Shown: positions 3,311 through 63,644 of the stretch, one piece after another
Position numbering within the stretch: position 1 is the first letter of the stretch
Layout: each line of letters begins with the position of its first letter
Origin: a virus
IMG/VR virus record: IMGVR_UViG_3300009285_004753
Location: 28,280 to 92,279 of that record
DNA: 64,000 nucleotides
Reading direction: 5' to 3' (one strand)
The notes under the pieces: model-generated
Databases searched by the model: none
Seen by the model: the letters and a program-made list of their open reading frames with translations, nothing else
Told to the model about the DNA's origin: nothing
Position numbers and translations under genes: made by a program

Positions 3311-3315
3311 TCTTC

Positions 3316-3600: not shown

Positions 3601-3630
3601 CGGCATCGCCTCCGGTTATCACCCAGCCCG

Positions 3631-3658: not shown

Positions 3659-3725
3659 GCCCTATTTTTCGTAACCAGCGAGAACCAAAGCAAACTGATT
3701 ACCCGTAACAGAAGTGAGACAGCAC

Positions 3726-5488: not shown

Positions 5489-5491
5489 ACT

Positions 5492-6324: not shown

Positions 6325-6332
6325 TTGCCCCC

Positions 6333-8270: not shown

Positions 8271-8526
8271 CTGAGACCCCCATTGTATAGTTAATCGCAG
8301 CATCCACGACTCTCTTGCACTGGTACTTGGAACGAATGTTCGCGCGAAAGAATCGCCAGACTGAAGAGGCCGAGCGCCAGCCCTCGACCACAGCGGCGCG
8401 AATCGTCAGCGGCCCCACATCCAGTACGACGTCGATGTCAGCGTTGGCCGGAAGGTCCGACAACGCCGCCTCACACACCATCCCGCTGTAGCAGACCACA
8501 TCATACATCACCTCTGACTTCTCCAT
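8260..8526 (-). CDS. Hypothetical protein
   Basis: 88 aa from ATG 8526 with AGGT RBS. Confidence 0.55.
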   Translation of the reverse strand: MEKSEVMYDVVCYSGMVCEAALSDLPANADIDVVLDVGPLTIRAAVVEGWRSASSVWRFFRANIRSKYQCKRVVDAAINYTMGVSDEN

Positions 8527-44958: not shown

Positions 44959-45047
44959 GCGGCGGGGTTCTCGGCGCGCTTCGGGCTCTTGAACTTTGAG
45001 TCCCGAGTTTCAGTCAACTCTAGGAACCGGGAGAGCGCAGCATCCAT
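44955..45047 (-). CDS. Unannotated 30-aa micro-protein MDAALSRFLELTETRDSKFKSPKRAENPAA (targeting leader plus short peptide)
   Basis: GGGAG RBS 7 nt upstream, stop overlaps the next ATG (ATGA), leader matches the shared motif. Confidence 0.72.
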   Translation of the reverse strand: MDAALSRFLELTETRDSKFKSPKRAENPAA

Positions 45048-49022: not shown

Positions 49023-51380
49023 TCACCGCTGGACCTTGCTCCGGAAGATCGACATGATGTCTGCTGTTGCGGACACAGGCGAATTCAGGACGGGAAGTCC
49101 AGTATCCACACCCCGGTTCTGTCCGGGGAGAGGTTCACGTGAAGTAGAGTCGGCGGCTTCGTTCACATTCCGCCTGTTCCGCTTGATCTGCTGCATCGCC
49201 CGCTGCTTGGCTCCGCCGACACGGCGCGTCCGCTTGGCTTCGTCCTTCGACGACTCGTCGTCGGTTCCCCAGAAGCCGTAATCACTGCCGTCGCCCTCGG
49301 AGGCGCCGAAGTAGTGACCGGCGGGGGCGTGCTCGTCCAGGGCATCGAAGAGTTCAGCGAGGATGTCGGACGCAAGGTCCGACTGCCACCAGTCATCGTC
49401 TGCGCCCAGGTCGGACAGCGGTGTCTTCGCTGCATCCTTGATTTCCTGCTGGACCTGTTTCGCTTTGTCGGCGTCGAGATCCTCCAGTTCGTCCAGGAAG
49501 CGGGGAAGCAGATCCTGAAGCCGCATGGTGCCCCAGGAGATCGAACCGGGCGTCCCTGTCTTCTTTCCCGTGTCAGCAGCGGGAGGCGTGCTGGATTCCG
49601 GCGGCGGTGTCTCTTCGGCCTCGTTGATCTTCGCCTTCACGGCGGAACGTGCCGCTTCGTTGGTTGTGACGGACGCGAGCAAGCTGTCCAGGTCCGACTG
49701 CGGTACCGTCTTGGCCTGCGCACCGCCGAGCCAGCGGTTGATGTGCCGCGTAGTCGTGCTCGACCATGCCTTGTCGGTACGGAAGTTTTCGCCGCCCTTT
49801 GAATACGCTACGGGCGTCCTGTACGAGAACAGGATACGCGTGCCTCCGACGACGACCTCGTTCACATTCGGTCCGATCGGCGTCAGGCCCACACCCTCAG
49901 CGATCTGCTGCGGTTTGCGGTCTTCCTTCAACATGGAGTACGCCGGCGGTTTGCCCTTGGCATAAGCAGCACGAGCGATCAGCTTTCCGGTGCCATCCTT
50001 GTACTCCAGGACCGCCGTGTCGGGGTCAGTCGTATTCGGCTCGCCCTTCAGTCCTGCGACAGCACGAGAGAATTCCTCCTGTGTCGTCGCTTTCAGCGCG
50101 GGTACCTGTTCGTGAATCGGCTTCGCTGCGGAAACGGCAGCACCGCCCGTCTCACTCAGCGTCTTCCACACGCGGCGGACGTCCGACTTCGTCTTGCACT
50201 CACCGAGCAGGCGGCGCGCCATCGGGGCGAACGCGGGCTTCGTGTGCCGCAGCACAGCACCGGCAACACGCGCCGTTTCTCTCTGGTTGAGCGTGTCAAG
50301 CAGCGCTTCGAGAATGCGGCCCTCGGCCTTGGCGCGAGATTCGTACAGTTTGTACCGCTGAAGCATCTGAAGAGAACTGCCCAGCAGCCGTTCTGCCGAT
50401 TCAAGCCGCTTCGCCAGCATGACATTATCCTGTGCCGATTCTGCAACAGGGCGAATTGCTGTTCCAGTTGCATTGCAATGCGGGCACGTCAACGGCCCGC
50501 CTTCAGGCAGCGATCTGCCGTCGCGCACGAACTCTTTGTGACACGATTCACACTTGTACTTCTTCGACGCCGCCTGTGACATCACAAAAGCGATGTCCTT
50601 TTTCATGCTGTCCGTGGCTTCGGTAAGTGCGGTGATCGCTGTCATTACTCGTTCGATTTCTGCGTGCGGCATAGCGGCCCCTTCCCCATTGGCTCTCTGC
50701 GAGAGCTTGGCGAGAGCATGTTCTACCAATACGGAGTCTCGGATCTCCGCCCCTAACGACGCACATTTTTCAATCACCTTAGTGTCAGTGGCCTCGTTTA
50801 TCAGTTTCAGCAGCGGTTCGCGCACACGCGTTCGTTCCTCGGCCTCTTTCGCTTCGGAGAGCACACGTGGGTACGCTCCGGGGGTGGACGGCTCCAAAAC
50901 GAAGTCCCAGGTAGACAGCGCGTAGTCTGCTTCGTTCACGACTTCAAGCCCGTTCTCGACAATAGTCGATCCTTTACCTCGGGATGACGTTCCGAGACCG
51001 GCCTTCGCGCGGTGCAGCGTAGCGGCAACGTGCCCGTGCGGTGTGTCGAGAATGTCATACTGGCAGTACACCGACCCGTCAGGTTCCAGCCGCGCTTCGG
51101 TAACGATATGCGACACGTCTTCGGGTTTCGACGCGTCTTCATCTTTCGGGTGTCCCAACTTCCCGAACATCCGACGTTCGGCGATCTTTGTCTTAATCGC
51201 GGGATCGTTCAGCGTTTTCTCCCACAGGGACCGCTTGTACACCCTGTTGTTCTCGTTCTTCGTATCGGACGTCTGCGAGCGCCCACCGACGCGCATGATG
51301 ATGCCGGGCGGCAGTGATCTGCGGTCTTCGGTCATCACCGTGTAGCTCGGATAGTAAGTATCGACGATAGGCTGTAGCAT
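49023..51380 (-). CDS. Prohead protease (T4 gp21-like) fused to scaffold and extra cargo domains
   Basis: QTSDTKNENNRVY, FGKLGHP, VSHIV, ILDTPHG, GTSSRGKGS, WDFVLEPSTPGAYP, followed by ~600 further residues. Confidence 0.9.
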   Translation of the reverse strand: MLQPIVDTYYPSYTVMTEDRRSLPPGIIMRVGGRSQTSDTKNENNRVYKRSLWEKTLNDPAIKTKIAERRMFGKLGHPKDEDASKPEDVSHIVTEARLEPDGSVYCQYDILDTPHGHVAATLHRAKAGLGTSSRGKGSTIVENGLEVVNEADYALSTWDFVLEPSTPGAYPRVLSEAKEAEERTRVREPLLKLINEATDTKVIEKCASLGAEIRDSVLVEHALAKLSQRANGEGAAMPHAEIERVMTAITALTEATDSMKKDIAFVMSQAASKKYKCESCHKEFVRDGRSLPEGGPLTCPHCNATGTAIRPVAESAQDNVMLAKRLESAERLLGSSLQMLQRYKLYESRAKAEGRILEALLDTLNQRETARVAGAVLRHTKPAFAPMARRLLGECKTKSDVRRVWKTLSETGGAAVSAAKPIHEQVPALKATTQEEFSRAVAGLKGEPNTTDPDTAVLEYKDGTGKLIARAAYAKGKPPAYSMLKEDRKPQQIAEGVGLTPIGPNVNEVVVGGTRILFSYRTPVAYSKGGENFRTDKAWSSTTTRHINRWLGGAQAKTVPQSDLDSLLASVTTNEAARSAVKAKINEAEETPPPESSTPPAADTGKKTGTPGSISWGTMRLQDLLPRFLDELEDLDADKAKQVQQEIKDAAKTPLSDLGADDDWWQSDLASDILAELFDALDEHAPAGHYFGASEGDGSDYGFWGTDDESSKDEAKRTRRVGGAKQRAMQQIKRNRRNVNEAADSTSREPLPGQNRGVDTGLPVLNSPVSATADIMSIFRSKVQR

Positions 51381-51389
51381 ATCTGCCTC

Positions 51390-52793
51390 CTAGTTTTCCG
51401 GTAGGTCCAACTGTGTAGCCAGCAACGCCGCGTATTCACGGGTCCACCAGCCGACATTTGCAATTTCAAACAGGGTTGTACGCGTCCCCCGCAGTACGCT
51501 GTGGATCTGATTGTCTGCGGTAACCATGGCCCGCGCTTTCTGCACGAACTGCGTGAACCATGATGTCAGGCTTTTCGTTGTAATTGCTTTGACCTCCGGC
51601 GAAACAACGAGATCGGCGACTGCGCGTAAGAAACTTTCCAGCAGATTCCGCGACGATGTGCTGCCCCCGCCCTTCAAGACGTCTGACGGGATGTAGCCTT
51701 GGATCACGTCCACTGTCAGGCCGAGCGTTGTTTGCACTTCTTTCGTTGTCGTATTACCGACAATAGACCGGAGCACGACGGCGAAAACCCGGCCGATGCC
51801 CGGCTGTAATGCGCGCTGCACTGTAGCGCGGAACAGGCCGGATAATAGGCTCTTGCGGAATGCTGGATCAAACTCACCCCCCAACTGCTGACGGAGCACC
51901 GACACAAAATGCAGGATACCCTCCATCGGACCGGGATGCGCCATACTCTGCATCCACGGAGCGAATACCTGCATGAGGAGATGCCGTACCGTTGCTTCCA
52001 TTTCCGCTATCCCAGCCGATGCCAGCTTTGCGGCCAGATCAGACGCATCGGTGTAGCCGGGAGTACCGAACAGGCGTAACCGCTTCAACCACGCGTGTGT
52101 CTGCGGTGTAACGTAGGCGGCAGCGCCGGATTCGTATTCCTTGTTATCGAGCACTTCCAACACATGCAACGGGCGCATCGAGAAGAACACCGCTTGCGTC
52201 GGTTCGTTACCGTGTATGACTGCCAGCCCCGGATCAAGAACACCGTCGAACCCAAGAATTGAGCGAAAAACAGAGTTCCACTTGTTCGGGTTGTTGGCTA
52301 CCAGCAAGCGGGTCACGTTCCAGAGTTTACCGGCAGGTGTACCCACTCGGGCACAGCGTTCCCAAGCGGGAAAATCGGAATCCATTCGCTCTTGCGCCTC
52401 AGCCGCTGACGCCGTAGATCCGTCTGCTTTGTACCGCGCTAATGTAGGCTTCATCGCGGCGTACTGTGCTGGTGTCAGGGACTCCAGGTTCAAGAAGTTT
52501 GTATCCGGCTTCACCTGTAACACGTACACCAGTGGGCGGGATTGACCGTAGGGCACGCGCATCTGACCGTGTTGAATGGCGTAGTCGATGGGATACGCGT
52601 AGATGCCGTTCGGCGTGTTGAATGTAGATTTCGGGTTGATGCCGATCTTCGGAGCACCACCAACAGGATCACGGAACGACACGAACACGTCAGCACGCCC
52701 TCTGTACTTCGCTAGCCGATCAGAAACAGGCTCACGCGGCAGATCAACAGCACGCCGTTCGACCAGTGACTGGAATGTAGACAGCGCAGTCAT
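51390..52793 (-). CDS. Putative internal protein with divergent ART-PolyVal-like domain (paralog A)
   Basis: Leader STFQSLVE; FVSF..GINPKSTFNTPNGIYAYP..GFDGV..IHGNEPTQAVFF. Confidence 0.55.
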   Translation of the reverse strand: MTALSTFQSLVERRAVDLPREPVSDRLAKYRGRADVFVSFRDPVGGAPKIGINPKSTFNTPNGIYAYPIDYAIQHGQMRVPYGQSRPLVYVLQVKPDTNFLNLESLTPAQYAAMKPTLARYKADGSTASAAEAQERMDSDFPAWERCARVGTPAGKLWNVTRLLVANNPNKWNSVFRSILGFDGVLDPGLAVIHGNEPTQAVFFSMRPLHVLEVLDNKEYESGAAAYVTPQTHAWLKRLRLFGTPGYTDASDLAAKLASAGIAEMEATVRHLLMQVFAPWMQSMAHPGPMEGILHFVSVLRQQLGGEFDPAFRKSLLSGLFRATVQRALQPGIGRVFAVVLRSIVGNTTTKEVQTTLGLTVDVIQGYIPSDVLKGGGSTSSRNLLESFLRAVADLVVSPEVKAITTKSLTSWFTQFVQKARAMVTADNQIHSVLRGTRTTLFEIANVGWWTREYAALLATQLDLPEN

Positions 52794-54664
52794 GCTGCCG
52801 CCTGGTTCAGTTCCTGCTGCCGGTCATGCGCTACGTCTACCAATCGATCGAACAGCGGCCCCACGAGGCGGGCACGGGACGCCAACGACACGACCGCCTC
52901 CAAGTCAGTGGCCGATGTAAGCCGTCGCGTAGCAGCGAAGATCGGAGGGAGTGCGTCGCTCAGGACGCCCGCGTAGTACCGCATCGGCGAAACCAACGGA
53001 AGTGGCGACAGTAGCAATTGCAGCGCTGCAACGGGCGGCAAACCACGCGACACTGCTGAAATTGCTGCCGGAGCATCTGGCACACGGAACCCAGCGCCAA
53101 TCATGCGAACCAGAAGCGCGACGGCGCGGTATTGCTTCGCTGTCTCGGATGATTCAAGCGCGGTGATCGCTTCAGCCTCGGCGCGCTGAATCAGTGTAGC
53201 GAACCCGGATTGCATTGATGCGACAAGATCGTCCGCAACCGACCGATCCGATGCATCAGCCGGGATTGAAGTAGAACGGCCCTGCTGCAACCAAGTGGCA
53301 ATAACAGACAGCACCCGGTCCTCGATGTCCTGGTCCAGATCCTTTTCTAGTAGACCAAGCGCCCGGTACAACTGACGGGCAGTAGTGATATAGCGTAATC
53401 GTGGGAACACGGTACCGCCGGGGTGTAACAACAAAGAGGGAGCGTCAAGCGCCGCTGCTTGACGGAGTCGATCGAACAGAGCGCTGGACGCCTTCCACAC
53501 TGTCACAGCGTCAGCAAGAGCAGAAGGGAGGGACTGACTAGCCAGCGCCCCGGCGATAATACGAGACGCGAGTGAACCAGCTTGCGCGTCCGACAGTACC
53601 CGCGACCATGCCAGCACACCTAGTTCGACAAGAGAGACGAACTCGGTGTGGGTAGCGTAACGCCACAGCACAGCGGCGAGTTCAGGATTATGGTTCCCTT
53701 CAAGCACAAGGCGACGTGCAATATTCAACCTCTCTGCCGTAACTGCCGCACCCCCGGATTTCGGGTCTATACCGATCCAGTCCAGCGCCGATCTAGCGGC
53801 AGTCCCGGTCATTTCCGGCAGTTCCTGTATCAGCGCTTCAATATTCAAGTACGTCTTACGCCGGAGGACGTTCGGTTCAAGCGTGACGACGTCAAATGCT
53901 TTGACGGAGAAGAATACGGCCTGCGTCGGCTCACTCGGATGGATGATACCAGCACCAAGGTCCACGACGCCTTCAACCCCGAGCAAAGTGCGAAAGATCC
54001 AGTTCCATTTGTTCGGGTTCCGCTTCGCCGCCATGCGGGTGATATTCCAGAGTCGTCCGCCGTAGCTCTTCTGCCGAGCTTGATTCGACCACTGATTGAC
54101 GGCTGACTCCGGCGATAGGCTGCGATCGTCGGAGCTATCGTCGTCTTCACCTGCTAATTCGTCTGCTGCGAAATTCTGCTGCACGTAATCAAGCAGTACG
54201 GCACGGTACCTGTCGAAGTCGGTAGACGCTAGGGCCTGGATATCCGGGATAAAAGAAACACCGTGCTTCCGCCGCAGCACGGCAACGACCGGCCTGTCAC
54301 TACCGTATGGTGTGTTAAGCCGCACTTGTCCGCCATATTCATCCCACACTTCGCGCAGCGGATAGGTATAGACGCCGTTGGGTGTGCCGAAAGTTGACTT
54401 CGGGTTGATACCGATACGGGTAGCCAGCGGCAGACTCGACTTCCGTTTCTGCATGAGGTCGGCCTGTGCTTTGATCAATTCGCGTTTAGTCGGTATGAAT
54501 CCGGGACGCATTACAGGCGGCGGAACAGGCGTCAGATCGCGGAACGAGACGAAGATGTCCGGGTCGTCCTTGTACTGTCGAAGTGCATCGTAAATCGTAG
54601 CGCGGGGACCGCTGTCGATTGAACGGCGTTCAGCCAGGGAACGGAACGTATTCCGCTCGTTCAT
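52790..54664 (-). CDS. Putative internal protein with divergent ART-PolyVal-like domain (paralog B)
   Basis: Leader NTFRSLAE; FVSF..GINPKSTFGTPNGVYTYP..GVEGV..IHPSEPTQAVFF. Confidence 0.55.
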   Translation of the reverse strand: MNERNTFRSLAERRSIDSGPRATIYDALRQYKDDPDIFVSFRDLTPVPPPVMRPGFIPTKRELIKAQADLMQKRKSSLPLATRIGINPKSTFGTPNGVYTYPLREVWDEYGGQVRLNTPYGSDRPVVAVLRRKHGVSFIPDIQALASTDFDRYRAVLLDYVQQNFAADELAGEDDDSSDDRSLSPESAVNQWSNQARQKSYGGRLWNITRMAAKRNPNKWNWIFRTLLGVEGVVDLGAGIIHPSEPTQAVFFSVKAFDVVTLEPNVLRRKTYLNIEALIQELPEMTGTAARSALDWIGIDPKSGGAAVTAERLNIARRLVLEGNHNPELAAVLWRYATHTEFVSLVELGVLAWSRVLSDAQAGSLASRIIAGALASQSLPSALADAVTVWKASSALFDRLRQAAALDAPSLLLHPGGTVFPRLRYITTARQLYRALGLLEKDLDQDIEDRVLSVIATWLQQGRSTSIPADASDRSVADDLVASMQSGFATLIQRAEAEAITALESSETAKQYRAVALLVRMIGAGFRVPDAPAAISAVSRGLPPVAALQLLLSPLPLVSPMRYYAGVLSDALPPIFAATRRLTSATDLEAVVSLASRARLVGPLFDRLVDVAHDRQQELNQAAA

Positions 54665-55458
54665 TTCTGCGATTTCCGCAACAAGTCCATCATCGACGGC
54701 TCTTGCTCTTTTCCGTTGCGCTGTTTATCCAATACGTCCGTCACACCCTGTGCCGGGTCGTCCGCCCCCCCATGTTGCGCGTTCCAACGGGCGAGCCTGC
54801 GGTAGAACGCCTTACCCGCGGCCGACTTCGTCCACTTCTCTACACCGGACCTGTACTGCTCCCGCTTCAGCCTGTGCGCTTTCTTAGCAGCGGCGGACAG
54901 TGTCGGATCAGGTAATCCCTTTCGATCGCGGTCGCGTTGTACCAGCCCAACACTTTCAGCGACGGGGTCTAGGTCGATCTCCGGACCTTGGATGCCCTGC
55001 GATATTTCGACGATGTACATCCGCATCGCCCTGCTGGCAACACCAGGGTTCGTGGGGCCTGCGATGGAGAGTACCAGTCCGGGGCCAGTATACTCGGGTA
55101 GTCTGTCGGGGGCCTGTGCCAACCACATCTTCGCCCCCTGCGCCACCTGCACGTAAGCCAGTCCGTCCTTGTGCTTCACCTGCAACGTGCACTCTCCCTC
55201 AGCCGGCAGTACACCGGTCAGGACACCAGAGAGAAAAACCTTGTACAGGTTTCGCACACCGGTGATCTTCGGCAGCTTCCTTTCGGACGCGCCTTCACAC
55301 AACATGCGGTTGATGTCACAGTGCTCCACGATGTTCTGCCGCTTTACCCGTTGCCGATGCCCGAGCGGGCAGACGATGTCGTACTCTGACCCGTCTTGCT
55401 TCCAGTTGATCCTGCGAGCAGCAGTACCGCAGGTCGAGCATGTCAGTGGGCCGGTCAT
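54661..55458 (-). CDS. Hypothetical protein with N-terminal Zn ribbon and basic core-like C-terminus
   Basis: CSTC..CPLGH; KAHRLKREQYR..GKAFYRRLARWN. Confidence 0.6.
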   Translation of the reverse strand: MTGPLTCSTCGTAARRINWKQDGSEYDIVCPLGHRQRVKRQNIVEHCDINRMLCEGASERKLPKITGVRNLYKVFLSGVLTGVLPAEGECTLQVKHKDGLAYVQVAQGAKMWLAQAPDRLPEYTGPGLVLSIAGPTNPGVASRAMRMYIVEISQGIQGPEIDLDPVAESVGLVQRDRDRKGLPDPTLSAAAKKAHRLKREQYRSGVEKWTKSAAGKAFYRRLARWNAQHGGADDPAQGVTDVLDKQRNGKEQEPSMMDLLRKSQK

Positions 55459-56168
55459 GCTTGCGGCGCCACAGGGGCTATGACAGGGGCGTTTACCGCC
55501 GGCGGCAGAGCAGTAGGAGCGCCGGCGGAATCAGACGGGACCGGCTTACGCTGCTCTGCGTTACTGAGTTCAGCTTCTACTTCGCTCCAAGCGCGCTCAT
55601 AGTCGGAAGGCATCACCGCCCCCCCCCTACCAAGTCGATACTCCGTTGCACGGCGGAACATGTCACCGATTTCACTCACATCCAAACCGTATTGCCTTTT
55701 CGCCGCTGCAATCCGCGTTTTGAACTTCGCCCGCTGAATTCTGTCATTGATCCAGAGCAAACCCGCCCCGAGTCCGACACCGGTACCCAACGCAACGAGC
55801 GGTGCCGCCGTCAGCCCGGTAGCGAGTGCAACAGCACCGGCAGCACCCAAGCCCCCGGCGACACCTGCTGCGGTTACCTCATTGAGACCAGCTACCAGCG
55901 CGTCAGCGTCTGCTCCCTGCAACACGCGTTCAATCAGTCCCTGCGCCGTCCGCTGGTACCGCGTTTCCGCCGACTCTTCTTTCTTCAGCCCAAGCCGCTG
56001 CTGGACGATACCAGTCACGTAACTCCATGCCTGGTCGTCGAACTCGCTCTCTTTCTTGCCGAACTTCTCGGCAGCAGCCATCTTGGCTTCCTTCCAGTAC
56101 TGTTCGACGTTCTTGACCGGCTGCCCGGACTTGCGTGCGAGCGCGTACGACATTCCTGTAGGCATCAT
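55455..56168 (-). CDS. Putative head core protein with hydrophobic Gly/Ala segment
   Basis: MP..LARKSG..VEQYWKEAK..WSYVTGIV N-terminus recurrent in large phages; KEES and LNE sites. Confidence 0.55.
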   Translation of the reverse strand: MMPTGMSYALARKSGQPVKNVEQYWKEAKMAAAEKFGKKESEFDDQAWSYVTGIVQQRLGLKKEESAETRYQRTAQGLIERVLQGADADALVAGLNEVTAAGVAGGLGAAGAVALATGLTAAPLVALGTGVGLGAGLLWINDRIQRAKFKTRIAAAKRQYGLDVSEIGDMFRRATEYRLGRGGAVMPSDYERAWSEVEAELSNAEQRKPVPSDSAGAPTALPPAVNAPVIAPVAPQA

Positions 56169-56338
56169 CCACCTCCTGATTTTTTCACGATCCGGTCAAC
56201 GAACGACTGTCCGCTGAAATACACCGACACAATCCCGCCGAGCGTGTAGAGCGCAGCATCGGAAGCGTCAAACATCGACATCCCGGCAACAGCGGTGATC
56301 GCTACAACAGCGACGAGGAATTTGCGGAGTCCGATCAT
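56165..56338 (-). CDS. Unannotated 57-aa two-TM holin-like protein
   Basis: MIGLRKFLVAVVAITAVAGMSMFDASDAALYTLGGIVSVYFSGQSFVDRIVKKSGGG; ATGA overlaps at both ends. Confidence 0.7.
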   Translation of the reverse strand: MIGLRKFLVAVVAITAVAGMSMFDASDAALYTLGGIVSVYFSGQSFVDRIVKKSGGG

Positions 56339-57054
56339 ACCGTACCTCGATCCGCGGGCTTCCAGTCTACCCGCTGCGCTATCTCGAAGAAATTGGACCC
56401 ATCGCGCTTGAACTGCGGCGCCTTTGACCAGTCAACCAACCACACTTCAGTTGGGCGCACCGTACCCTCGTTAGCAACGTGCATACCGAGGTCCAACAGT
56501 TCACGCTTCTGTGTCTGCGACATCTTGCGAAGCATCTGTTTACCCGCCACTGCAAAATACGAGTACTCCCCGTCCTCTGCTTTCTCCCATGCGCGCGGTG
56601 AAACCACCTTCCGGCCCCAGTTGTAGACCCAGTCAGGTACTTGGGTCTGATCCATCTTATACCCGAACTGCGCTTTCATTTCAGGCGTAACCGTCCGGGT
56701 GTGGATCAGTTCGCCGACTTGGTCTTCGTCAGGCTGGATGTCAGTGAGTTCGGTACCGGGCACCACGAACACGTAACCTCGCCCGGTGTAAGCAGTGTTC
56801 GGCACACCGGCATAGTTACCGCCTAACGCGTATATCAGAGCGTACCCGATATCGGGCGTCAAGTACGTCCGACCGACAACAGGGTCCAGTCGGCCGCGCC
56901 CCTGTACCGCTGCTCCGGGACGAATCTCTCCCGCCTGCATGATGGCAGCGCCCCGCTCCTTCGTCGTACCGTGGTAATAGGAACGAGAGAGTTCAGACGT
57001 CGTCGCAGCAGCAAACTCTACCAACGACCGGAAGCGGGTAAGCGCCGTATCCAT
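56335..57054 (-). CDS. ADP-ribosyltransferase-fold protein (H-Y type) with targeting leader
   Basis: MDTALTRFRSLVE leader; YYHGT..AAIMQAGEIRP..TYLTPDIGYALIYA..GYVFVV; true start ATG 57054 (TGATG overlap). Confidence 0.75.
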   Translation of the reverse strand: MDTALTRFRSLVEFAAATTSELSRSYYHGTTKERGAAIMQAGEIRPGAAVQGRGRLDPVVGRTYLTPDIGYALIYALGGNYAGVPNTAYTGRGYVFVVPGTELTDIQPDEDQVGELIHTRTVTPEMKAQFGYKMDQTQVPDWVYNWGRKVVSPRAWEKAEDGEYSYFAVAGKQMLRKMSQTQKRELLDLGMHVANEGTVRPTEVWLVDWSKAPQFKRDGSNFFEIAQRVDWKPADRGTV

Positions 57055-58532
57055 CAGTACAACCGCCCCAAGCCCCGGTACTTTACGCCGCCGGGCTGCC
57101 GGTTCCCGACCTGTTTCCGGTACTGCGCGTAGTTGGCTTCGACCCAAGACATGACCTTCTTCAGATCCCCCCGGACAAACTCCTTGTTCGTCCCCGGCTG
57201 TGCGACGTAGAACTCCAGCCCGTCGTTAGACTGAAGGTACACAAGATCGCGGGCTGTCTCGCCCCACACGATCACTTGGTTTTCTTCATCCCCCCAGTGA
57301 TGAACTTGTGCTCCGGAAGCGCGGAACATGATCGCTTCCTTCCCATACTGCGCTTTGCCGCTACGAACCCGCCCGAATCGAAGCGCATCGCCCGGCGTAA
57401 ACGCGAAATTGTATCCCCCGTGCTTTAGTTCCCGGTCCGAAAAGTACGTCGTCAGTCCGAGCCGAGCAAGGTCGCCCATTCCACGCGTAAATCCCTCACC
57501 GGCGATATTGCCTGCCGCGTCTGAGAAATGAACGAGCCACTGATTCTTGACGATCTGCTCGAAAGACATGTGCGCCCAGGTAGGGACATTTGCAGGGTCA
57601 GAGCCGGACAAGAGGCGAGAAGCGAAATCCTCCAGGTTCACGCCTGGCCAGTCATCGGGAGTGAACGGGAGCATCCTTTCAGCGTACTGCTCCATCTCAC
57701 TGCCGTCACCGATCCCCTTCTCCGCCAGGGCGTCCGGGTTCACTCCCTCAATGTAGTCGAACGCTTCATATGGGAACCGCTCCATCAGTTCTGTCATCTT
57801 CTCTTTGTCCGACATCGTGAGGTACTTGCGGAGATACACGATATCGTTCGCCACAAACTCGTCGAGTGTCTGTCCGGCCAAACGGCGGAACTCGGTTTGT
57901 TCGTCAGCCTCAATCTTCTGGTGGTCGAAGTAGTCGTCACCTGTTCCCGGCTTATGCTCCTTTGACCAGACGTCCCAGTGCTTGTCGCAGAACCGAACGA
58001 ATGCAGCGCCCTCGGCCCACTTCGCCTTGTGTGTTGCCGGTGCCGTGCACCCGCGCTTCATACACTTCCCGCCCGCGGTGTCAAATTCCTGTTTTGGTTT
58101 CGGCGCTTCACTCACGGTGGGCGTCCCGTAGGCCCGCGTCCGTTCTCGCGGTTCCTCGATGTGTCGCAGTACCAGAGCGACCACGGCATCCGCGAGCTTG
58201 CCTGTCGCCAGCGAGTGTACTGTCACGGTGTCTACTGTCGATGTCTTCCGCCCCGATGTTACGAAATCCAGTTCCGCCGAGTCCTGATACGGGTACAGCA
58301 TCACAACGGTTCCGTGCTTGTCCGTTTCGGCCGGGCGCACAATGCGGATCTCTGCAACAGCAGGTACGCCCGCCTGGTAGATCTGTAACCGCGGTCGGAT
58401 CTCGAAACGCAACCACACCGGAGCACGAGCATTGAGCTGCTGTTGCAGGTCATCGAAATACGCCCGTTCCTCGTTCCCCAACTGGACAGCCTCGGCGAGA
58501 CCCGTGAACCGAGTAACGGCTTCGTCTGTCAT
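57054..58532 (-). CDS. Multi-domain putative internal protein with C-terminal ART-like domain
   Basis: Leader TRFTGLAE; CxxxxC..FCxxH zinc finger; second leader-like TEFRRLAG..LDE; WLVHFS..GYNFAF..YGKEAIMF..GDEENQVIVW. Confidence 0.6.
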   Translation of the reverse strand: MTDEAVTRFTGLAEAVQLGNEERAYFDDLQQQLNARAPVWLRFEIRPRLQIYQAGVPAVAEIRIVRPAETDKHGTVVMLYPYQDSAELDFVTSGRKTSTVDTVTVHSLATGKLADAVVALVLRHIEEPRERTRAYGTPTVSEAPKPKQEFDTAGGKCMKRGCTAPATHKAKWAEGAAFVRFCDKHWDVWSKEHKPGTGDDYFDHQKIEADEQTEFRRLAGQTLDEFVANDIVYLRKYLTMSDKEKMTELMERFPYEAFDYIEGVNPDALAEKGIGDGSEMEQYAERMLPFTPDDWPGVNLEDFASRLLSGSDPANVPTWAHMSFEQIVKNQWLVHFSDAAGNIAGEGFTRGMGDLARLGLTTYFSDRELKHGGYNFAFTPGDALRFGRVRSGKAQYGKEAIMFRASGAQVHHWGDEENQVIVWGETARDLVYLQSNDGLEFYVAQPGTNKEFVRGDLKKVMSWVEANYAQYRKQVGNRQPGGVKYRGLGRLY

Positions 58533-58936
58533 GCAACTACCTTGATCCTTGCCGCCGGAATGGTATCACGGACAACAGGATGCACGTACTCACCACCCAC
58601 ACCAACCGTCGTGAGTCCGGCGACGTCCAGTTCCAGTACATCGCCGTTCGGTGCGTAATCACGTTTGTACTCCAGCGCCGCTGACAGCGTGGCGTGACAG
58701 TGAATCTCCCTGCCATCGGTACCCAGCAGAATGTTCCACGCCCGGTCAGAGTAGTATTCAGCATACCGCTCTTCCCACGCCGCTTTCGCGTCTTCGCTGG
58801 TAATCTCTCCGGATTGCACCCGGTCCAGCAGCGGACGCAGATCCTTACCGTCCCACGGCCCCGCCGTCACGTGATACACTGTTGTTGCCTCCTCCATCTC
58901 TACAAGTCGCATGAATATGCGGGTAGCAGAGTCCAT
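58529..58936 (-). CDS. Small ART-fold (Tpt1/KptA-like) protein with targeting leader
   Basis: MDSATRIFMRLVE leader; VYHVT..IHCHATLSAALEY..VLELDV..EY..VV..IPAARI; start ATG 58936 with GAGGT RBS. Confidence 0.68.
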   Translation of the reverse strand: MDSATRIFMRLVEMEEATTVYHVTAGPWDGKDLRPLLDRVQSGEITSEDAKAAWEERYAEYYSDRAWNILLGTDGREIHCHATLSAALEYKRDYAPNGDVLELDVAGLTTVGVGGEYVHPVVRDTIPAARIKVVA

Positions 58937-58940: not shown

Positions 58941-61900
58941 CTACCTCGGTTTAGCGGGAGCGCCGATCGAAAAGTAGTAGGGAGATTCCTGATCCCAGTA
59001 CTGACTCTCGACTTCGTATTCCTTCCCACCGATCACGATTACTGCCCGAAGCGAGCCGCCCCGCTGTTCAAGCCCGAGGCGTGACGCTTCTGCCGACGGG
59101 ATGAAGTACGTCAGACCGTCATGGTGCGTCGCGTTGGTCTGCCCTTTGTCGGTAATGAACAGTGCAGCTTTCGGCGGAGTTGCCGGCAGACCGCCCGCCG
59201 CCTTCCGGATCGCTTCCGTCAACGCGTCTTTCGGCGACATACCGGACGCCATGAGTCTGCGGACTGTGCTGTCTACGCCAGCCTGCTCGGTAATGGGAGC
59301 GGGCTGCTCCACCAGACGGACAGTACACTTCGTCGGAGACCTGCGCGTCCATTCACGCACAGCCGCCTGCTCCGTGAACGCTCTTGTGTACAGTGTTGTT
59401 TCGGTGCCTTCAGAGATCGAGTAACCCGTCGTCTGGTACTGCTTCGACTCAGCAGCCGGCAGCGGTTCCGACGGCTGTTCCGCTGTTGTTGCGGGTACCT
59501 GTACAGGGTCAGCAGCAGCATCCCGTTCGCCGACAACAAGCCAGTCCCCCCGCGCCGAAGTGAAATGGAAATACGCCCTGTAACCGTCAGTGCCCGCCTG
59601 CACACCTGTGACAGCCCCCTGTGCCAGTACGTCCCGCAAGTTGGTGGTATTAATGTGCTGGCTTATCCCAGTACAGTCGCCGACTTCAGCGAGGAAGTTA
59701 CCCTTGTATGCGGTGGAGTGGATGGACAATCCACCGTTCGACCAAACGGTGACAGTATCGCCGCCATACCGCGCCCACACGGGAATCTGAGCGTTCGCTT
59801 CGGCAGGCCACAGCTTCCAGGTCTCCCACGCCGGCATTGACACGCCGACCTTTGTCGCTGCCGCAAGAACGTCCGTCGGGTGCCATATCTTGTGCCCGTC
59901 GGTATACCCGCCGTCCATCTCCTGCGCCTTGTCTACCAGCGTGTCTTCGCGGTTTCCGCCGGTTTCAGCCTTCATCATGGCGTACACACCAGGCCCCGCT
60001 GCTTTTGCCGCCCTCAGCAGACTGTCCCACTTACGGACGGTATCAACTTCACCTATTCTAGCAGCCGGCAGCAATTCCTGCACGGTACCGTGTGTCGCAT
60101 ATTCCTGCAACCACGCCCGCAACTGCGTCTCGTCGGCGGCATCGAGCTTGTCCCGTTCAAGCGACGAGTATTCGTGTGTAGTCGGATTGAAGACGGTCAG
60201 CCCGAGTTTCAGTGTCGCCTTCAGCCCGTTGCGCATGAACATGACGGGATCTGTGGTAAGCGGGAGCTTACCGGCGAGGAAGTCCTTCGCTGTCTTGCGG
60301 GAAAGCCGCGTTTCGTTGATGCTCCGAAGTTTGAGCGGGCACTTGTGCTGCCGTCCAGCAGGTGGGATTGCCGTCAGTTGCACGGGCACGCCCTCGACCA
60401 ACTGCTTGAATCTTGTCTTCACGTCCGTCGCATCCATGGCACTCTCCTGTCGAATGTTATCCCGCAGCCCTTCTTCCAGCCCGACCCACCGCTGCCTCAT
60501 CGCGACCGCTGCCGTGTCTACCTGATCACGGACGTCCCGCTCGAATGCCTCGGCGTCTTTCTCCGACTTGAAGTGAAACACCGTCTCGGGCCTGTCGATG
60601 TTGTACTGCCCACGGACGATCTTGTAGGCCCGCTGCGCCTGCCCGCCGTGTGCTACCGCAACTTTGTCGATGATCCCGCTGTACTGATCGTCAGCGTTTA
60701 CACTGACGTTCCAGTGTTCGTCAGATTGACGGACGCCCTCAGACGCCGCGGGCTGCTGCAGGCTATCAGTAGCGCGACGGCCATACTTCGGCGGCTGCAC
60801 GTCAAGGCGGTCACGAATCGCCCGTCGAATCGCCGTTCCGCCCGTCCCGCCGATCGTGACGTACAGGTGCAACTCAGGTATCAAGCCGGTCTGGTTCCGC
60901 CAGTCCTTCGGCGACAGCCATGCACGCACACCGCTGACACGACCCTCCGGCGTAGACAGACCCCGCAACTTGTACCACAGGTCAAGCTCTGTCTGCTCCA
61001 CACGAAGAGGGAGGCCCCGCACGGCATCGTCGTCCTGATCATCGCTTCGACGGAGAGAAGCCACCGAAGACCGCACGAACACCCCGAGACCGGCGGACAC
61101 CAGGTCACGCGATATCAGAGAGTCCAGCACGGTAAACCCCCGTTCCTGCAGCTTCTCGGAAACAACAGGAGCGAACGTGCTGATCCAGTGCTTCAGCCGG
61201 GGATCAGCATCGGTAACCCCGCGACCGAGATGGCTGTTCAGCACGTCGCCGACAACAGCCTCATTCAGCCGCAAACGACGGACAACCCGCTGAGCGAACG
61301 TAGCTTCCCGGAGCACTACACCCCGGCTCTGAATGTAACTGCGAGCGGCGTCGGCAAGCGCTGCGTTCATCTTGCCCGCCCCGACATTAGCCCATTCTTC
61401 CAATTCACTTTTCAGGAACCGCTCTAACGGCTTCAGGTCTTTCGTGTCGGCGAAGAATCTATCCCACCGCCCGTCCCAGATACCAGCACCCTCCCCGTTC
61501 AGTGTCAGCAGCACGTCCACCGGCGCGTCTTCGCGCATCATAACGTCTACGTCGAAGCCGTCTGCGAACTTGTGCCCCTGCTGCACCCAGGCGTTCAATG
61601 CCGTCTTGACCGCCAGCTTGAACTGCTTCCACACAGCGATCGCGTCTGGTGTTGCGACCGGCGGATTGTTGCGTGTAACCGCCGCGGTACCACGTTCCGG
61701 GTACGGGTATTCCTGTAACTCGCTTTCAACATCACTGACCATAAACCACGACACGGCATCTTCGTCTGTGACTTCCTCGTTGATGGAGCGCCCACGGGCC
61801 AACGTCGCACTCTCGTAGTACCCACCGGTATCCAGGTTCACCCACGATACGTTGCCGCGCTCATTGACGAACGCTACGTCGGGATAGAAGTTCTCCTTCT

Positions 61901-63644
61901 TCATCCACGCCTTAATCCCGGCAATTGTTTCGTCCCACTCGTCCCACTGCCCGAACGATTTACCAGCGTAACCAGCGATGTACGCCGACTTGCCGCGACC
62001 GATGTCGCTGATGATGATGTCAGTTTCCTGGTCGGGTTCACGGTTCTCGTTGCTGCCGAAACCTGCGGTAGGGTCAGCACCGGTATCCGTTGCCCCATCA
62101 ACCGGGTCCATCGGTGGAGGAGCGGCTTCGCTGGTAGCTGCCGAAGCTGGCCGCAGGTTCACCTCGTTATGGTACTTGCTCTCGGTTTTCCCGCCCGGCC
62201 ATTTCTCCCGCACCTTGTATTTCCAGCCGCCGTACTTCTCCCCCTCATAGCCGCCGATCGAGACAATCGATCCGGACATGACACTGTGTGACGACGTACC
62301 GAATGTCCCGATGTCCCACTCTACAGCGTCCCCATACTTGAACTTGGGTTCCGGGTCGTTGGTACCCTGGTATCCCTCGCCCAACGCTGCACCATTCTTG
62401 CTCCCTGCCCACTTACCCGTACCGACGCCACTCCGCATTGTAGCGACAACGTACAGGCCCGGAACACGACGAAGATCCCGGACTACAGCATCGGCCTTAT
62501 CGTCAGCCACAGCGATAATCGTCGGTTCACCGTCAAGTGAAGACAATCCCCATTTCTCCGGCTGCGTGACAAACTGGAATTCGGTGCCCGGCGCGAGCGA
62601 AGCAACGGCCTGCGACGCACCACGATACGCCCTCTCCACCCTGCTATAATCGGCGTGTCGCGCCAGATAAGCGATTACCGTCATTCCGGGATACGCGATC
62701 TCTGCGTTCTCGTTCTTGATCTCCCCCGACCGGATCTGCGCCAGGGTGTCCTGCACATACTCCTCGTCAGCTTCGCGGACGTCCACATACGGTTGACCGT
62801 TGAAGACGTAAAGGTCAGCGTACAGACTGCCGGTCCACCTGCTCGGGTCGGTATGCACATCGTGGTCGAACAAGTACTCGGTTCCCTTGTAGCGGTAGAA
62901 ATACGTATCACCGTCAAGATGCAGTGCCGCCTTGTCGAACGGAACCAGCGCGACAAACTGCTGCTCCGGACTAACGGTGGGGGCCTCCATCAGACGGCGA
63001 AGAACGTGCTTCGGATCGACAGACTCGTTCGCCCGCCCGAACGGTAACTCTCCTTGTCCGGGAGCTTCACCCGCGGCGTTGCTGACGCGCGCCTGATCGA
63101 GTACGGCCTGCACGGCGGAACGCAGAGAGTTGAACTCCTGTTGCAACAATACCTCTTGCTGTTCACCGGGCTTCCACACCCACTCGATCTTGACCTGGCG
63201 TTGTTTGTCTTTCGGCTGAAGCGTCACAGGATCTGCGGCAGTAATCGGCCCACCGAATCCGATCGTGAACGTCAACACCGCCGGACCGCGGGTAAACTGA
63301 ATCCAGCCCGTGCCCTTATCGGCGCTCACACTATTCTGGTGAAAGCCCGCAGCGCGCAAGTCTGCCCCGATCTGGATAGCGACGCTATTGAGTGTGCGTA
63401 ACGCCAGTGCCTGCTCTTCGTCATCCCACCTGTGACTCGGGACCATCTGCCGCAGCCGTTCCAGTTCGATGTACTTCTCCGTACCCGTCGTTACTTCATT
63501 GACCACTCCAGTTTCCGCAGTACGCGCCGCCAGACAACGGATAGCATCGATCTCCCGGTCCGACCGGGTACTGCCGTCTCCGCCTTCAGTATCGGACCCA
63601 TGAAGCAACTGCATCAACTTGGTCTTGATGTCGAACATGAACAT
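58941..63644 (-). CDS. 1567-aa polyvalent-type polyprotein of concatenated small domains
   Basis: About a dozen or more NE/xE linker sites, an internal RBS plus ATG at 60437 with a repeated leader; RBS spacing favours a start at 63638. Confidence 0.7.
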   Translation of the reverse strand: MFMFDIKTKLMQLLHGSDTEGGDGSTRSDREIDAIRCLAARTAETGVVNEVTTGTEKYIELERLRQMVPSHRWDDEEQALALRTLNSVAIQIGADLRAAGFHQNSVSADKGTGWIQFTRGPAVLTFTIGFGGPITAADPVTLQPKDKQRQVKIEWVWKPGEQQEVLLQQEFNSLRSAVQAVLDQARVSNAAGEAPGQGELPFGRANESVDPKHVLRRLMEAPTVSPEQQFVALVPFDKAALHLDGDTYFYRYKGTEYLFDHDVHTDPSRWTGSLYADLYVFNGQPYVDVREADEEYVQDTLAQIRSGEIKNENAEIAYPGMTVIAYLARHADYSRVERAYRGASQAVASLAPGTEFQFVTQPEKWGLSSLDGEPTIIAVADDKADAVVRDLRRVPGLYVVATMRSGVGTGKWAGSKNGAALGEGYQGTNDPEPKFKYGDAVEWDIGTFGTSSHSVMSGSIVSIGGYEGEKYGGWKYKVREKWPGGKTESKYHNEVNLRPASAATSEAAPPPMDPVDGATDTGADPTAGFGSNENREPDQETDIIISDIGRGKSAYIAGYAGKSFGQWDEWDETIAGIKAWMKKENFYPDVAFVNERGNVSWVNLDTGGYYESATLARGRSINEEVTDEDAVSWFMVSDVESELQEYPYPERGTAAVTRNNPPVATPDAIAVWKQFKLAVKTALNAWVQQGHKFADGFDVDVMMREDAPVDVLLTLNGEGAGIWDGRWDRFFADTKDLKPLERFLKSELEEWANVGAGKMNAALADAARSYIQSRGVVLREATFAQRVVRRLRLNEAVVGDVLNSHLGRGVTDADPRLKHWISTFAPVVSEKLQERGFTVLDSLISRDLVSAGLGVFVRSSVASLRRSDDQDDDAVRGLPLRVEQTELDLWYKLRGLSTPEGRVSGVRAWLSPKDWRNQTGLIPELHLYVTIGGTGGTAIRRAIRDRLDVQPPKYGRRATDSLQQPAASEGVRQSDEHWNVSVNADDQYSGIIDKVAVAHGGQAQRAYKIVRGQYNIDRPETVFHFKSEKDAEAFERDVRDQVDTAAVAMRQRWVGLEEGLRDNIRQESAMDATDVKTRFKQLVEGVPVQLTAIPPAGRQHKCPLKLRSINETRLSRKTAKDFLAGKLPLTTDPVMFMRNGLKATLKLGLTVFNPTTHEYSSLERDKLDAADETQLRAWLQEYATHGTVQELLPAARIGEVDTVRKWDSLLRAAKAAGPGVYAMMKAETGGNREDTLVDKAQEMDGGYTDGHKIWHPTDVLAAATKVGVSMPAWETWKLWPAEANAQIPVWARYGGDTVTVWSNGGLSIHSTAYKGNFLAEVGDCTGISQHINTTNLRDVLAQGAVTGVQAGTDGYRAYFHFTSARGDWLVVGERDAAADPVQVPATTAEQPSEPLPAAESKQYQTTGYSISEGTETTLYTRAFTEQAAVREWTRRSPTKCTVRLVEQPAPITEQAGVDSTVRRLMASGMSPKDALTEAIRKAAGGLPATPPKAALFITDKGQTNATHHDGLTYFIPSAEASRLGLEQRGGSLRAVIVIGGKEYEVESQYWDQESPYYFSIGAPAKPR

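Follow-up and report, generated by a model that had tools for sequence, protein, structure and literature searches.

A 1567-residue open reading frame in the head-gene cluster of an uncultured phage carries the leader of its neighbours twice

To our knowledge, T4-type phages have only one means of packing arbitrary proteins into the head so that they are delivered together with the DNA, the capsid targeting sequence (CTS). Capsid targeting sequences also serve as an engineering tool, and in T4 an Asp at position P1 prevents processing. Of the 10 residues of the T4 CTS, residues 4 and 7 are used for targeting and residues 8 and 10 for processing; as a short leader ending in hydrophobic-x-Glu, the CTS stands on the unrelated proteins IPI-III and Alt and is served by the protease gp21 (PMC9026906). 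The gp21-like proteases of T4, phiKZ, 201phi2-1 and SPN3US all cut after Glu (PMC5694885, PMC10052503). In SPN3US and phiKZ, the paralogous head proteins of the gp53/gp54 and gp93 family have near-identical N termini of about 15 residues with one or two x-E sites: the first 15 residues are common to SPN3US gp53 and gp54 and contain sites at 12 and 15, and cleavage of phiKZ gp93 occurs at SLE-13 (PMC5694885, PMC10052503). The propeptides of these phages are cut at several sites, and their protease has a cleaved C-terminal extension (PMC5694885, PMC10052503). Polyvalent proteins form another group for comparison; these large multidomain proteins are encoded beside virion and packaging genes and consist of recombining modules (Iyer, Burroughs, Anand, de Souza, Aravind 2017; PMC5512222).

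We analysed a very large open reading frame (ORF) in a viral DNA stretch of 64,000 nucleotides, called the window below. The ORF and the head genes near it are as follows.

58941-63644, minus strand: the whole ORF (P0001), 1567 aa and ~170 kDa, a single open frame
51390-58936, minus strand: leader-bearing genes of 135, 492, 239, 624 and 467 aa, directly downstream of the ORF
49023-51380, minus strand: 785-aa protein, its first ~200 aa a T4 gp21-family prohead protease, followed by a C-terminal extension with five x-N-E sites
47579-48994, minus strand: major capsid protein, Gp23 family (Pfam Gp23, 8e-50)

A plus-strand reading of 58941-63644 was rejected, as it contains stops throughout; the gene lies on the minus strand. 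Public gene callers put its start at the second ATG (63638), two codons in, which gives 1565 aa. A GGAG lies 7 nt upstream of this ATG, which is probably the true start. At least 24 contigs, which come from several metagenomes of groundwater and soil, encode the same protein without a single differing letter. Therefore, the ORF is real and not an assembly artefact. Contigs of four runs compared along the ORF had zero differing letters, a comparison in which contigs cannot reveal rare variants. Among the runs listed as containing this stretch, none was an RNA run. The carrier is an uncultured groundwater phage lineage of high GC. Neither promoter-like sites nor minus-strand terminator-like sites were found in or near the ORF.

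Homologues of the ORF were sought by several routes. In Pfam, the whole protein matched no family at E<=1 and none of eight segments gave a significant match. Nothing usable was obtained with the whole protein against PHROGs and PDB sequences, with the ORF in megablast and tblastn against phage records (50,697 records for tblastn) or in ESM Atlas feature searches. A word-based search returned only the ORF protein itself, the N-terminal 425 aa searched alone gave no match, and neither the ORF nor the protease had relatives in scans of IMG/VR. An exhaustive HMMER search with residues 368-1567 as the query against 1.84 billion representative proteins gave 150 listed matches; among these, only two modules of the ORF (A and B, see below) were matched, and the junction described below was not. 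With residues 568-616, BLAST gave a weak match to a 157-aa membrane protein (E=0.007), which we attribute to chance.

The original prediction had invoked a prohead protease, and the ORF indeed lies in a head-morphogenesis cluster with a protease of the gp21 family, of the Glu-specific type. Its N-terminal domain matched PHROG 207 at 6e-30 and the T4 gp21 structure 5JBL at 3e-7, with the His region and the Ser region of the SRG.GS motif aligned. As in the T4 CTS system, the same phage thus encodes a prohead protease of the gp21 family (S77) and a capsid protein of the gp23 family. The portal, sheath, adaptor and baseplate genes are on the same strand as the ORF, and 51390-58936 also contains, in between the leader-bearing genes, genes of 57, 236 and 265 aa that have no leader.

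About 10 otherwise unrelated genes around the protease and capsid genes start with a common leader, and an additional copy is found inside the ORF. The leader has 13-15 aa and the consensus M-x3-5-T-[RK]-F-x-x-L-[VA]-E, typically M-x(3-5)-T-R-F-x-x-L-V-E. The arrangement is like that of T4 IPI-III and Alt, whereas the leader itself, T-R-F-x-x-L-V-E, differs from the T4 CTS. Over the 945 ATGs that the 104-kb contig has in its six frames, a regular expression for the leader hit six cluster gene starts, the two alternative starts of the ORF and M1070, and nothing else. Further members were recognized by eye or with a PSSM at genes of 613, 135 and 225 aa and at a micro-ORF at 45047. The conserved residues of the leaders use differing synonymous codons, so conservation is at the peptide level and not at the nucleotide level. 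Therefore, selection acts on the peptide, and for the same reason we discarded the ideas that the leader is an element at the nucleotide level or a patch left by recent recombination. The protease consensus, hydrophobic-x-Glu, ends the internal leader (LVE1084) and 9 of the 11 cluster leaders. The elements of the ORF are listed here from its N terminus to its C terminus.

63597-63638, minus strand: N-terminal leader MFDIKTKLMQLLHG, diverged from the other cluster leaders, with His in place of Glu
63495-63509, minus strand: GVVNE, residues 46-50, candidate maturation cleavage site after the leader
62046-62057, minus strand: GSNE, residues 530-533, candidate cleavage site, within the low-complexity linker that leads into module A
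61806-62045, minus strand: module A, residues 534-613, with a beta3-alpha-beta3 core at 543-613
61776-61787, minus strand: SINE, residues 620-623, candidate cleavage site between modules A and B
61323-61757, minus strand: module B, residues 630-774, with an N-terminal helix and an EYPYP linker, then a five-helix core
61260-61271, minus strand: RLNE, residues 792-795, candidate cleavage site 21 residues past the end of module B
60444-60449, minus strand: putative fusion junction, CAG codon 60449-60447 overlapping the Shine-Dalgarno (SD) sequence AGGAG 60448-60444
60393-60437, minus strand: internal leader MDATDVKTRFKQLVE, residues 1070-1084, with an in-frame ATG start and ending in L-V-E, the T4 gp21-type cleavage consensus
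60312-60323, minus strand: SINE, residues 1108-1111, a further candidate site, 27 residues beyond the end of the internal leader
58941-60437, minus strand: C-terminal 498-aa segment, the presumed former downstream gene and a possible separate product

The N-terminal leader of the ORF has LLH where others have LVE, and the next candidate site is GVVNE50. Because Glu is missing at the homologous position, the cleavage site behind this leader is a guess. The leader of the 476-aa head-cluster protein is also without Glu, and the same GVVNE occurs about 36 aa from its start. We also examined the paralogue family of the 624-, 467- and 613-aa proteins. All 21 distant homologues (14 distinct N termini) begin with a short leader that ends in hydrophobic-x-E at residue 6-18, for example MKFSEYITE and MKFLEFYRLNE; the control rate at internal windows of these homologues was 37% (p about 1e-9). 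These leaders look like the T4 CTS. In a phage of 30% GC that has T4 neck genes (L011), seven genes start with MKF.[EQ]Y..E or MSNYQEFLADLLE. The locus would represent a diverged but recognizable leader system that extends T4-style capsid targeting, with the genes listed giving about 10 predicted cargo proteins.

It had also been predicted that an internal ATG with an upstream SD sequence opens a second copy of the N terminus, and this was confirmed by the SD sequence and by the scan of the 945 ATGs. The ATG at 60437-60435 is preceded by AGGAG (60448-60444) with a 6-nt spacer, starts the peptide MDATDVKTRFKQLVEG and leaves exactly 498 aa to the stop. It is the sole internal ATG of the ORF with an SD-like core at proper spacing, and the sole in-frame start candidate (ATG, GTG or TTG) with a 5-nt SD core. 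No other SD in the ORF is as good, and several leader genes nearby have weaker ones. The T4 CTS system differs in having no such complete second leader, with an SD and an ATG of its own, inside an ORF. As far as we know, a fused two-leader architecture is undescribed in giant-phage head proteins.

The proposed origin of the ORF by fusion of two leader-bearing genes is well supported because the cluster leader is present twice, at the N terminus and at residue 1070. Moreover, the junction CAG GAG AGT GCC ATG has the geometry of TAG GAG GCA GAT ATG, which lies between the 467-aa gene and the protease gene. Since a true intergenic junction nearby has this geometry, a single TAG-to-CAG change would explain the fusion. 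The ORF thus looks like two adjacent leader-bearing genes joined in frame by stop loss, and the event looks recent. A pattern scan for TAG or TGA variants of the junction gave no match in metagenome and viral contigs, among which records close to the phage's own genome may have been masked, and the C-terminal 498 aa had no homologue in any search, including the exhaustive HMMER search (among the matches listed). The 1567-aa frame has kept the second leader together with its start codon and ribosome-binding site, and a putative separate 498-aa product starting at 60437 is plausible.

Small domains of the ORF had been predicted to be joined by 14 E-ending linkers. All 14 strings are present, although AAES does not end in E (a cut would fall between AAE and S). 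Counted over the ORF, [LIV]xE occurred 27 times against 20.0 expected (p=0.05) and [SAG]xE 24 times against 26.9 expected (p=0.78). NE occurred 9 times against 2.9 expected (p=0.002), [LIVSAG]NE occurred 7 times against 1.3 expected, which was reached in 0 of 2000 shuffles, and [VI]NE was found 11 times in 7112 head-cluster residues versus 3 times in 26042 residues elsewhere (p=8e-6, about 13-fold); the p-values for NE are optimistic because this motif was chosen after the data had been inspected. Generic x-E linkers are thus not above chance in the ORF, and the enrichment is limited to the NE subset. NE was counted seven times in the protease protein and four times in the 476-aa protein, and the rest of the genome was at expectation. 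SPN3US and phiKZ prefer A/S/G-x-E, whereas the motif here looks like [LIV]-x-E, often with N at P2. Some NE occurrences clearly read as structural and not as sites: FVNE595 is inside the conserved core motif of module A and is therefore no linker, and the VVNE of the protease domain has IVNE as its aligned counterpart in T4 gp21. Of the 14 putative linkers, only 5 are in segments of low hydrophobicity, and the other 9 have an ordinary sequence context.

The embedded domains had been likened to stand-alone phage proteins. This was borne out for two of three, AWMKKENFY..VNERGN and LLTLNGEGAGIWDGRW, which have many homologues; for the third, described as KOW/SH3-like, neither Pfam nor the exhaustive HMMER search gave support. 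Module A (AWMKKENFY..VNERGN) belongs to an uncharacterised family with stand-alone homologues of 92-112 aa, and it contains the conserved core motif [YF]VNERGN. Module B has the signature TLxGEGxGIWDGRWD and belongs to a widespread uncharacterised family. Elsewhere, the two modules occur as stand-alone proteins, in the order A-B, in the order B-A and inside larger proteins. Fold searches gave generic weak matches only, both for module A (Foldseek against PDB; VIA-align wide; best Z, 4.8) and for module B (Foldseek against PDB, AFDB clusters and Atlas; VIA-align wide; best Z, 6.6). Two widespread modules are thereby defined, with hundreds of homologues and confident models, and without a Pfam or PHROG family or a known fold match. 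Module B carries a leader-like helix, TLDQLVEMAAES, as an integral part. This helix was rejected as an N-terminal leader, as it accompanies the module at internal positions too. Where module A or B is a stand-alone gene, the genomic context was mixed or uninformative; one B gene was found among replication-type genes.

With respect to boundaries, GSNE533 and SINE623 sit in the low-pLDDT flanks of module A, and SINE623 is in a low-pLDDT segment about 7 residues ahead of the first helix of module B. NE sites were found at all three module boundaries that could be delimited. Together with the NE enrichment, the position of these candidate sites beside modules A and B is circumstantial evidence for the predicted cleavage at domain boundaries.

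We propose, with a probability of about 0.6, that the product of the ORF is a capsid-targeted internal head protein that is cut after Glu by the prohead protease. It would be a very large protein of the core or cargo of an uncultured myovirus from groundwater whose head assembly is of the T4 type, and it would have arisen when two neighbouring leader-bearing genes were joined in frame, most simply by TAG-to-CAG at 12 nt before the second ATG. Like the T4 CTS and the N-terminal propeptides of phiKZ and SPN3US head proteins, the leader would bring the protein into the prohead core, where the gp21-type protease would then cleave behind the Glu of hydrophobic-x-Glu motifs. The minimal cuts would be at or near VVNE50 and LVE1084, possibly also at LEE1058 and SINE1111, and these cuts would re-separate both ancestral proteins within the capsid. 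Should the protease indeed cut at these positions, joining or splitting cargo genes would be almost neutral for such phages, which would help to explain the origin of large multidomain virion proteins. More speculatively, cuts at the exposed [VILS]-N-E sites 533, 623 and 795 may free modules A and B, and initiation at the internal ATG may also produce the 498-aa segment as a separate protein. Multi-site processing of the polyprotein type is plausible. The complete scheme, in which cargo genes are fused serially, the protease re-separates their products in the prohead at leader-type and [VI]-N-E sites, and the internal SD and ATG also make the downstream part, is tentative; if true, serial fusion would be a route for T4-type phages to assemble and diversify sets of injected effectors.

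Compared with the known systems, the cargo of 1567 aa stands against T4 internal proteins of 8-76 kDa, to which the ORF has no sequence similarity. No homology to proteins of the gp53/gp54/gp93 type was found as a PHROG match or as a tblastn match in 50,697 phage records. The parallel with polyvalent proteins in the original prediction is loose. The ORF shares with them its large multidomain build, the head-gene context and recombining modules, and module B elsewhere co-occurs with DUF2958, DUF5661, DUF7447 and a sub-threshold ART-PolyVal match. However, the catalogued polyvalent domains (ART, MPTase, ParB-like, SNF2, methylase and others) and an embedded peptidase were absent from the ORF when Pfam was searched with the whole protein and eight segments. 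Unlike in polyvalent proteins, any processing here would occur in trans, by the prohead protease at leader-type sites.

Other explanations for these data can be considered. The relevant proteins may still be made separately, the 498-aa protein by initiation at 60437, with the fused frame mostly a by-product and the full-length protein minor or additional. The strength of the SD at this site, the complete leader directly behind the ATG and the functional internal start of T4 gene 21 (PMC9026906) are in favour of this, but there is no upstream stop, so ribosomes coming from the first 1069 codons would read through, and initiation inside a translated frame is often weak; we consider this possible but would not expect it. 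A true capsid-delivered polyprotein, as in the original prediction, cut at many inter-domain Glu sites into modules (A, B, the C-terminal protein and others) that are retained in the head and injected as separate effectors, would account for the enrichment of NE and [LIVSAG]NE, for the NE sites at the three testable boundaries and for modules that stand alone elsewhere and occur in both orders. It would also fit the multiple cleavages documented for giant-phage head proteins (PMC10052503) and an analogous 1560-aa ORF on another IMG/VR contig (locus L025), which has module B and recurring L-x-E-type linkers and lies between terminase and portal. However, most documented cuts in T4, SPN3US and phiKZ remove N-terminal propeptides that exit the head and do not release retained domains (PMC10052503, PMC9958956). 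With only two delimitable domains and an ordinary context for most of the listed sites, such a polyprotein seems rather unlikely.

The product could instead be an expendable scaffold or core protein like T4 gp22, gp67 and gp68, degraded at Glu sites into peptides that exit the capsid, with nothing functional delivered. T4 gp21 breaks core proteins into small peptides (PMC9958956), and the C-terminal extension of the protease gene, the usual scaffold place, has the same NE enrichment. The compact globular modules of the ORF are, however, independent proteins in many phages, long coiled-coil character is not obvious, and 1567 aa of unrelated domains would be odd for a scaffold, all of which makes this improbable. 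Equally hard to favour is a shared N-terminal motif that serves as a common interaction helix for a chaperone, a membrane or a partner, on a multidomain protein that is not packaged. The similar integral helix of module B (TLDQLVEMAAES), present even internally, and the module B genes outside virion modules would agree with this. But only genes close to those for the protease, capsid and neck carry the motif, it ends in the consensus of the protease, and distant homologues have in its place a peptide resembling the T4 CTS.

The 1560-aa ORF at locus L025 was compared further with the ORF of the window. The two are similar in size and have module B at the same relative position, and module B alone is homologous (BLASTP, 7e-9), with the other segments unrelated. 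The L025 ORF hints that the serial-fusion route may be widespread. An internal leader with SD and ATG was not seen in it. Like the ORF here, it has a head and packaging neighbourhood, and NE and [LIV]xE are mildly enriched in it. Genes next to it have a common short motif ending in L-R-E, which recurs inside the giant ORF.

The ORF, 1567 codons without interruption, runs on the minus strand (63644 to 58941) of a 104-kb IMG/VR virus contig, which is about 51% complete according to CheckV and has a G+C content of 59%. A plus-strand reading of the same coordinates was rejected because it is full of stops. Public gene callers chose the second ATG (63638, giving 1565 aa), with GGAG 7 nt upstream. 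An identical protein, with constant neighbors, is encoded on no fewer than 24 contigs drawn from several metagenome studies of groundwater and soil, and comparison with the contigs of four runs gave zero differing letters. Therefore, the long frame exists in the DNA itself and did not arise through assembly or sequencing errors. Among 5.8 billion clustered or 1.84 billion representative proteins, no relatives of the ORF were detectable outside two internal modules (see below).

The genes surrounding the ORF are all on the minus strand and together form a virion module. Many genes of this head cluster start with a leader peptide, with a consensus of about M-x(3-5)-[TSD]-[RK]-F-x-x-L-[VAI]-E.

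Features of the head cluster (window coordinates)
Farther upstream of the ORF: 225-aa gene, probable leader carrier
Immediately upstream of the ORF: 613-aa gene, leader carrier
58941-63644, minus strand: ORF, N-terminal leader diverged, LLH where others have LVE
Downstream of the ORF, minus strand, in order: genes of 135, 492, 239, 57, 236, 265, 624, and 467 aa; leader on the 135-, 492-, 239-, 624-, and 467-aa genes
51390-54664 and just past the window (window-equivalent 64021-65862), minus strand: three paralogues (467, 624, and 613 aa)
49023-51380, minus strand: 785-aa gene after the 467-aa gene, T4 gp21-family prohead protease in the first ~200 residues
47579-48994, minus strand: Gp23-family major capsid protein (Pfam, 8e-50), following the protease gene
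Past the capsid gene: 250-aa gene and a 30-codon micro-ORF, leader carriers
45070-46500, minus strand: 476-aa protein, leader-like N terminus without Glu, four NE versus 0.8 expected
44955-45047, minus strand: the micro-ORF, near-perfect leader at its start, MDAALSRFLELTE
Beyond the capsid gene: head-tail adaptor, sheath, lytic tail protein, baseplate hub and wedge, portal

The protease domain matched PHROG 207 at 6e-30 and the T4 gp21 structure 5JBL at 3e-7; the latter alignment paired the regions of the catalytic His and Ser. The gp21-family protease, the Gp23 capsid protein, and the sheath, baseplate, and portal genes indicate a myovirus whose head matures by a T4-type system. Proteases of this family (T4, phiKZ, 201phi2-1, and SPN3US) all cut after Glu, at short x-x-E motifs (PMC5694885, PMC10052503). 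Past its protease domain, the 785-aa protein has a zinc-ribbon-like motif (weak match to Pfam Zn_ribbon_8), matches to two uncharacterized PHROG families, and five x-N-E sites (LINE, NVNE, TTNE, KINE, and NVNE); this extension looks like a fused, self-processed scaffold or cargo part.

The original prediction had pointed out that the peptide following an internal in-frame ATG at 60437 (M1070) echoes the N terminus of the ORF. This was correct, and both peptides belong to the leader family of the head cluster. A leader regular expression was applied to the 945 ATG codons that lie within long open stretches of the contig, all six frames included; it picked out solely leader-bearing gene starts and, among internal positions, M1070. 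The micro-ORF was the best nontraining match of a leader PSSM trained without it. Synonymous codons for the conserved leader residues differ between genes, so the leader is conserved as a peptide, which ruled out a conserved DNA element and recent copying.

Apart from M1070, no internal ATG has even a partial Shine-Dalgarno-like core at a suitable distance, and among in-frame start candidates of any type (ATG, GTG, or TTG), none but M1070 has a core of 5 nt (AGGAG, 6-nt spacer). The sequence leading to it, CAG GAG AGT GCC ATG, is identical in geometry to TAG GAG GCA GAT ATG, where the 467-aa gene truly ends and the protease gene begins. Given this match, one T-to-C change in a TAG overlapping the ribosome-binding site would suffice to turn a leader-bearing gene of 1069 codons and a second one of 498 codons into a single frame. 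Such a fusion, which had been proposed, is well supported by the leader at M1070, the lone Shine-Dalgarno sequence, and the junction geometry. A cut at LVE1084 (motifs are numbered by their Glu residue), as predicted for every other leader copy, would free the downstream protein in its prefusion mature form, and one at LEE1058 would trim the tail remaining on the upstream part.

The combination of a capsid targeting sequence (CTS) with a prohead protease that cuts after Glu belongs to the textbook biology of T4 and the giant phages. The 467-, 624-, and 613-aa paralogues have the leader and an N-terminal domain of about 230 to 270 aa in common (BLASTP, 1e-42 to 7e-61), and they have distant homologues in other phages, T4-like ones included. 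A short N-terminal peptide ending in hydrophobic-x-Glu at residue 6 to 18 was found in 21 of 21 homologues (14 distinct N termini, for example, MKFSEYITE, MKFLEFYRLNE, and MRFLEFLKQINE), versus 37% of internal windows of the same proteins (p ~1e-9). One locus on another viral contig, L011 (30% G+C), gave Pfam matches to the T4 neck/tail-terminator families gp13, gp14, and gp15, and a near-identical contig (L012) has a Gp23 capsid gene. Seven adjacent genes of L011 begin with MKF.[EQ]Y..E or MSNYQEFLADLLE.

1466-8287 and 13584-13952 of L011, plus strand: leader-bearing genes, near gp13/gp14/gp15-family genes

Judged by sequence, these gene starts are of the kind called CTSs in T4, and the array is a clear CTS-bearing one. 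The T4 CTS has ten residues, with positions 4 and 7 used for targeting and 8 and 10 for gp21 cleavage (PMC9026906). The giant phages have the same device, an N-terminal peptide with one or more cut sites: SPN3US gp53 and gp54 have a common 15-residue N terminus containing sites at residues 12 and 15, and phiKZ gp93 is cleaved at SLE-13 (PMC5694885). From the protease homology, the gene position, and this chain of homologues, the leader is best read as a capsid-targeting propeptide of the window phage, with L-V-E as the predicted cut site.

An exhaustive HMMER search gave 216 proteins, and all 150 of the matches listed fell on one of two ORF segments.

Residues 534-613: module A, beta3-alpha-beta3 unit, pLDDT >85 from 540 to 610
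Residues 630-774: module B, N-terminal helix, EYPYP linker, and five-helix core

Homologues of module A are often stand-alone proteins of 92 to 112 aa. The module B core has the signature TLxGEGxGIWDGRWD, and its model (residues 655-775) has a mean pLDDT of 90. Module B is found by itself, in duplicate, combined with A in either order, or within larger proteins, which also hold DUF2958, DUF5661, DUF7447, or a sub-threshold ART-PolyVal match. Neither module matched a Pfam or PHROG family or gave a convincing fold match. Of three embedded domains likened earlier to stand-alone proteins, two were confirmed as modules A and B, with their stand-alone homologues, whereas the KOW/SH3-like one was without sequence support. 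Some module B genes in other phages are located among replication-type genes; the module is therefore not always virion cargo. Throughout the module B family (P0004-P0153), a conserved helix, TLDQLVEMAAES, precedes the core by about 20 residues, in N-terminal and internal copies of the module alike; the helix resembles the window's leader (compare RLVEMEEA of the 135-aa gene) and has two x-x-E motifs. One CTS-bearing gene of L011 gave a weak match to DUF5661, a domain that another protein joins to module B.

Fourteen E-ending strings had been put forward as linkers. All are present, but as a class they are unremarkable, with 27 [LIV]xE versus 20.0 expected (p=0.05) and 24 [SAG]xE versus 26.9. 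NE occurs 9 times versus 2.9 expected (p=0.002), [LIVSAG]NE 7 times versus 1.3, and [VI]NE 11 times in 7112 head-cluster residues versus 3 in 26042 elsewhere (p=8e-6), the NE p values being qualified by the choice of this motif after inspection of the data. Over the whole contig, NE outside the head cluster is at expectation; it is concentrated in the ORF, the protease protein (7, five in the C-terminal extension), and the 476-aa protein (4). Both proteins with a Glu-less leader have G-V-V-N-E 30 to 35 residues after it, at residues 46-50 of the ORF and around residue 36 of the 476-aa protein. GSNE533, SINE623, and RLNE795 are candidate sites in poorly ordered stretches just outside modules A and B. 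Two NE occurrences were rejected as linker sites: FVNE595 is part of the conserved core of module A, and the VVNE of the protease domain corresponds in alignment to IVNE of T4 gp21.

As a whole, the original prediction was largely right. We favor, with a probability of about 60%, a capsid-targeted internal head protein clipped after Glu by the gp21-type protease at least near both leaders; it would enter the capsid, and the cuts would set the two ancestral proteins apart again. Processing of a full polyprotein into many injected pieces fits the candidate NE sites found at three of three testable module boundaries, and we consider it rather unlikely. Additional internal initiation at M1070 is tentatively possible and not far-fetched, since T4 gene 21 itself uses an internal start (PMC9026906). 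Degradation of the product as an expendable core protein appears improbable, and there is an equally small chance that the protein is not packaged and the shared N-terminal motif serves as an interaction helix.

An analogue was found at L025, a locus on another viral contig whose portal belongs to the same PHROG family as that of the window phage.

8024-12706 of L025, plus strand: giant ORF of 1560 aa, between the large terminase (TerL) and portal genes

Module B occupies the same relative position there as in our ORF, whereas the rest is unrelated. The 1560-aa protein starts ...LIGLNE and has recurring L-x-E-[DG]-[KR]-L-x-E-like linker strings. Three genes upstream of it have TVDDLLREW, a short motif ending in L-R-E, near their N termini, and this motif recurs internally in the giant ORF as NVDDLMREF at about residue 140. 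This example suggests that large head-module proteins built around modules A/B may be a wider phenomenon.

In the window, a 311-aa protein (40097-41032, minus strand) is 44% identical over 78 residues to residues 158-229 of the capsid protein (BLASTP, 2e-9). A segment of about 75 to 90 aa is repeated in four other proteins (BLASTP, 1e-5 to 3e-11).

15820-22047, minus strand: 2075-aa protein
22432-25014, minus strand: 860-aa protein
37402-39765, minus strand: sheath
44272-44958, minus strand: 228-aa protein

This recurring segment probably represents a decoration or Ig-like insert common to the four.
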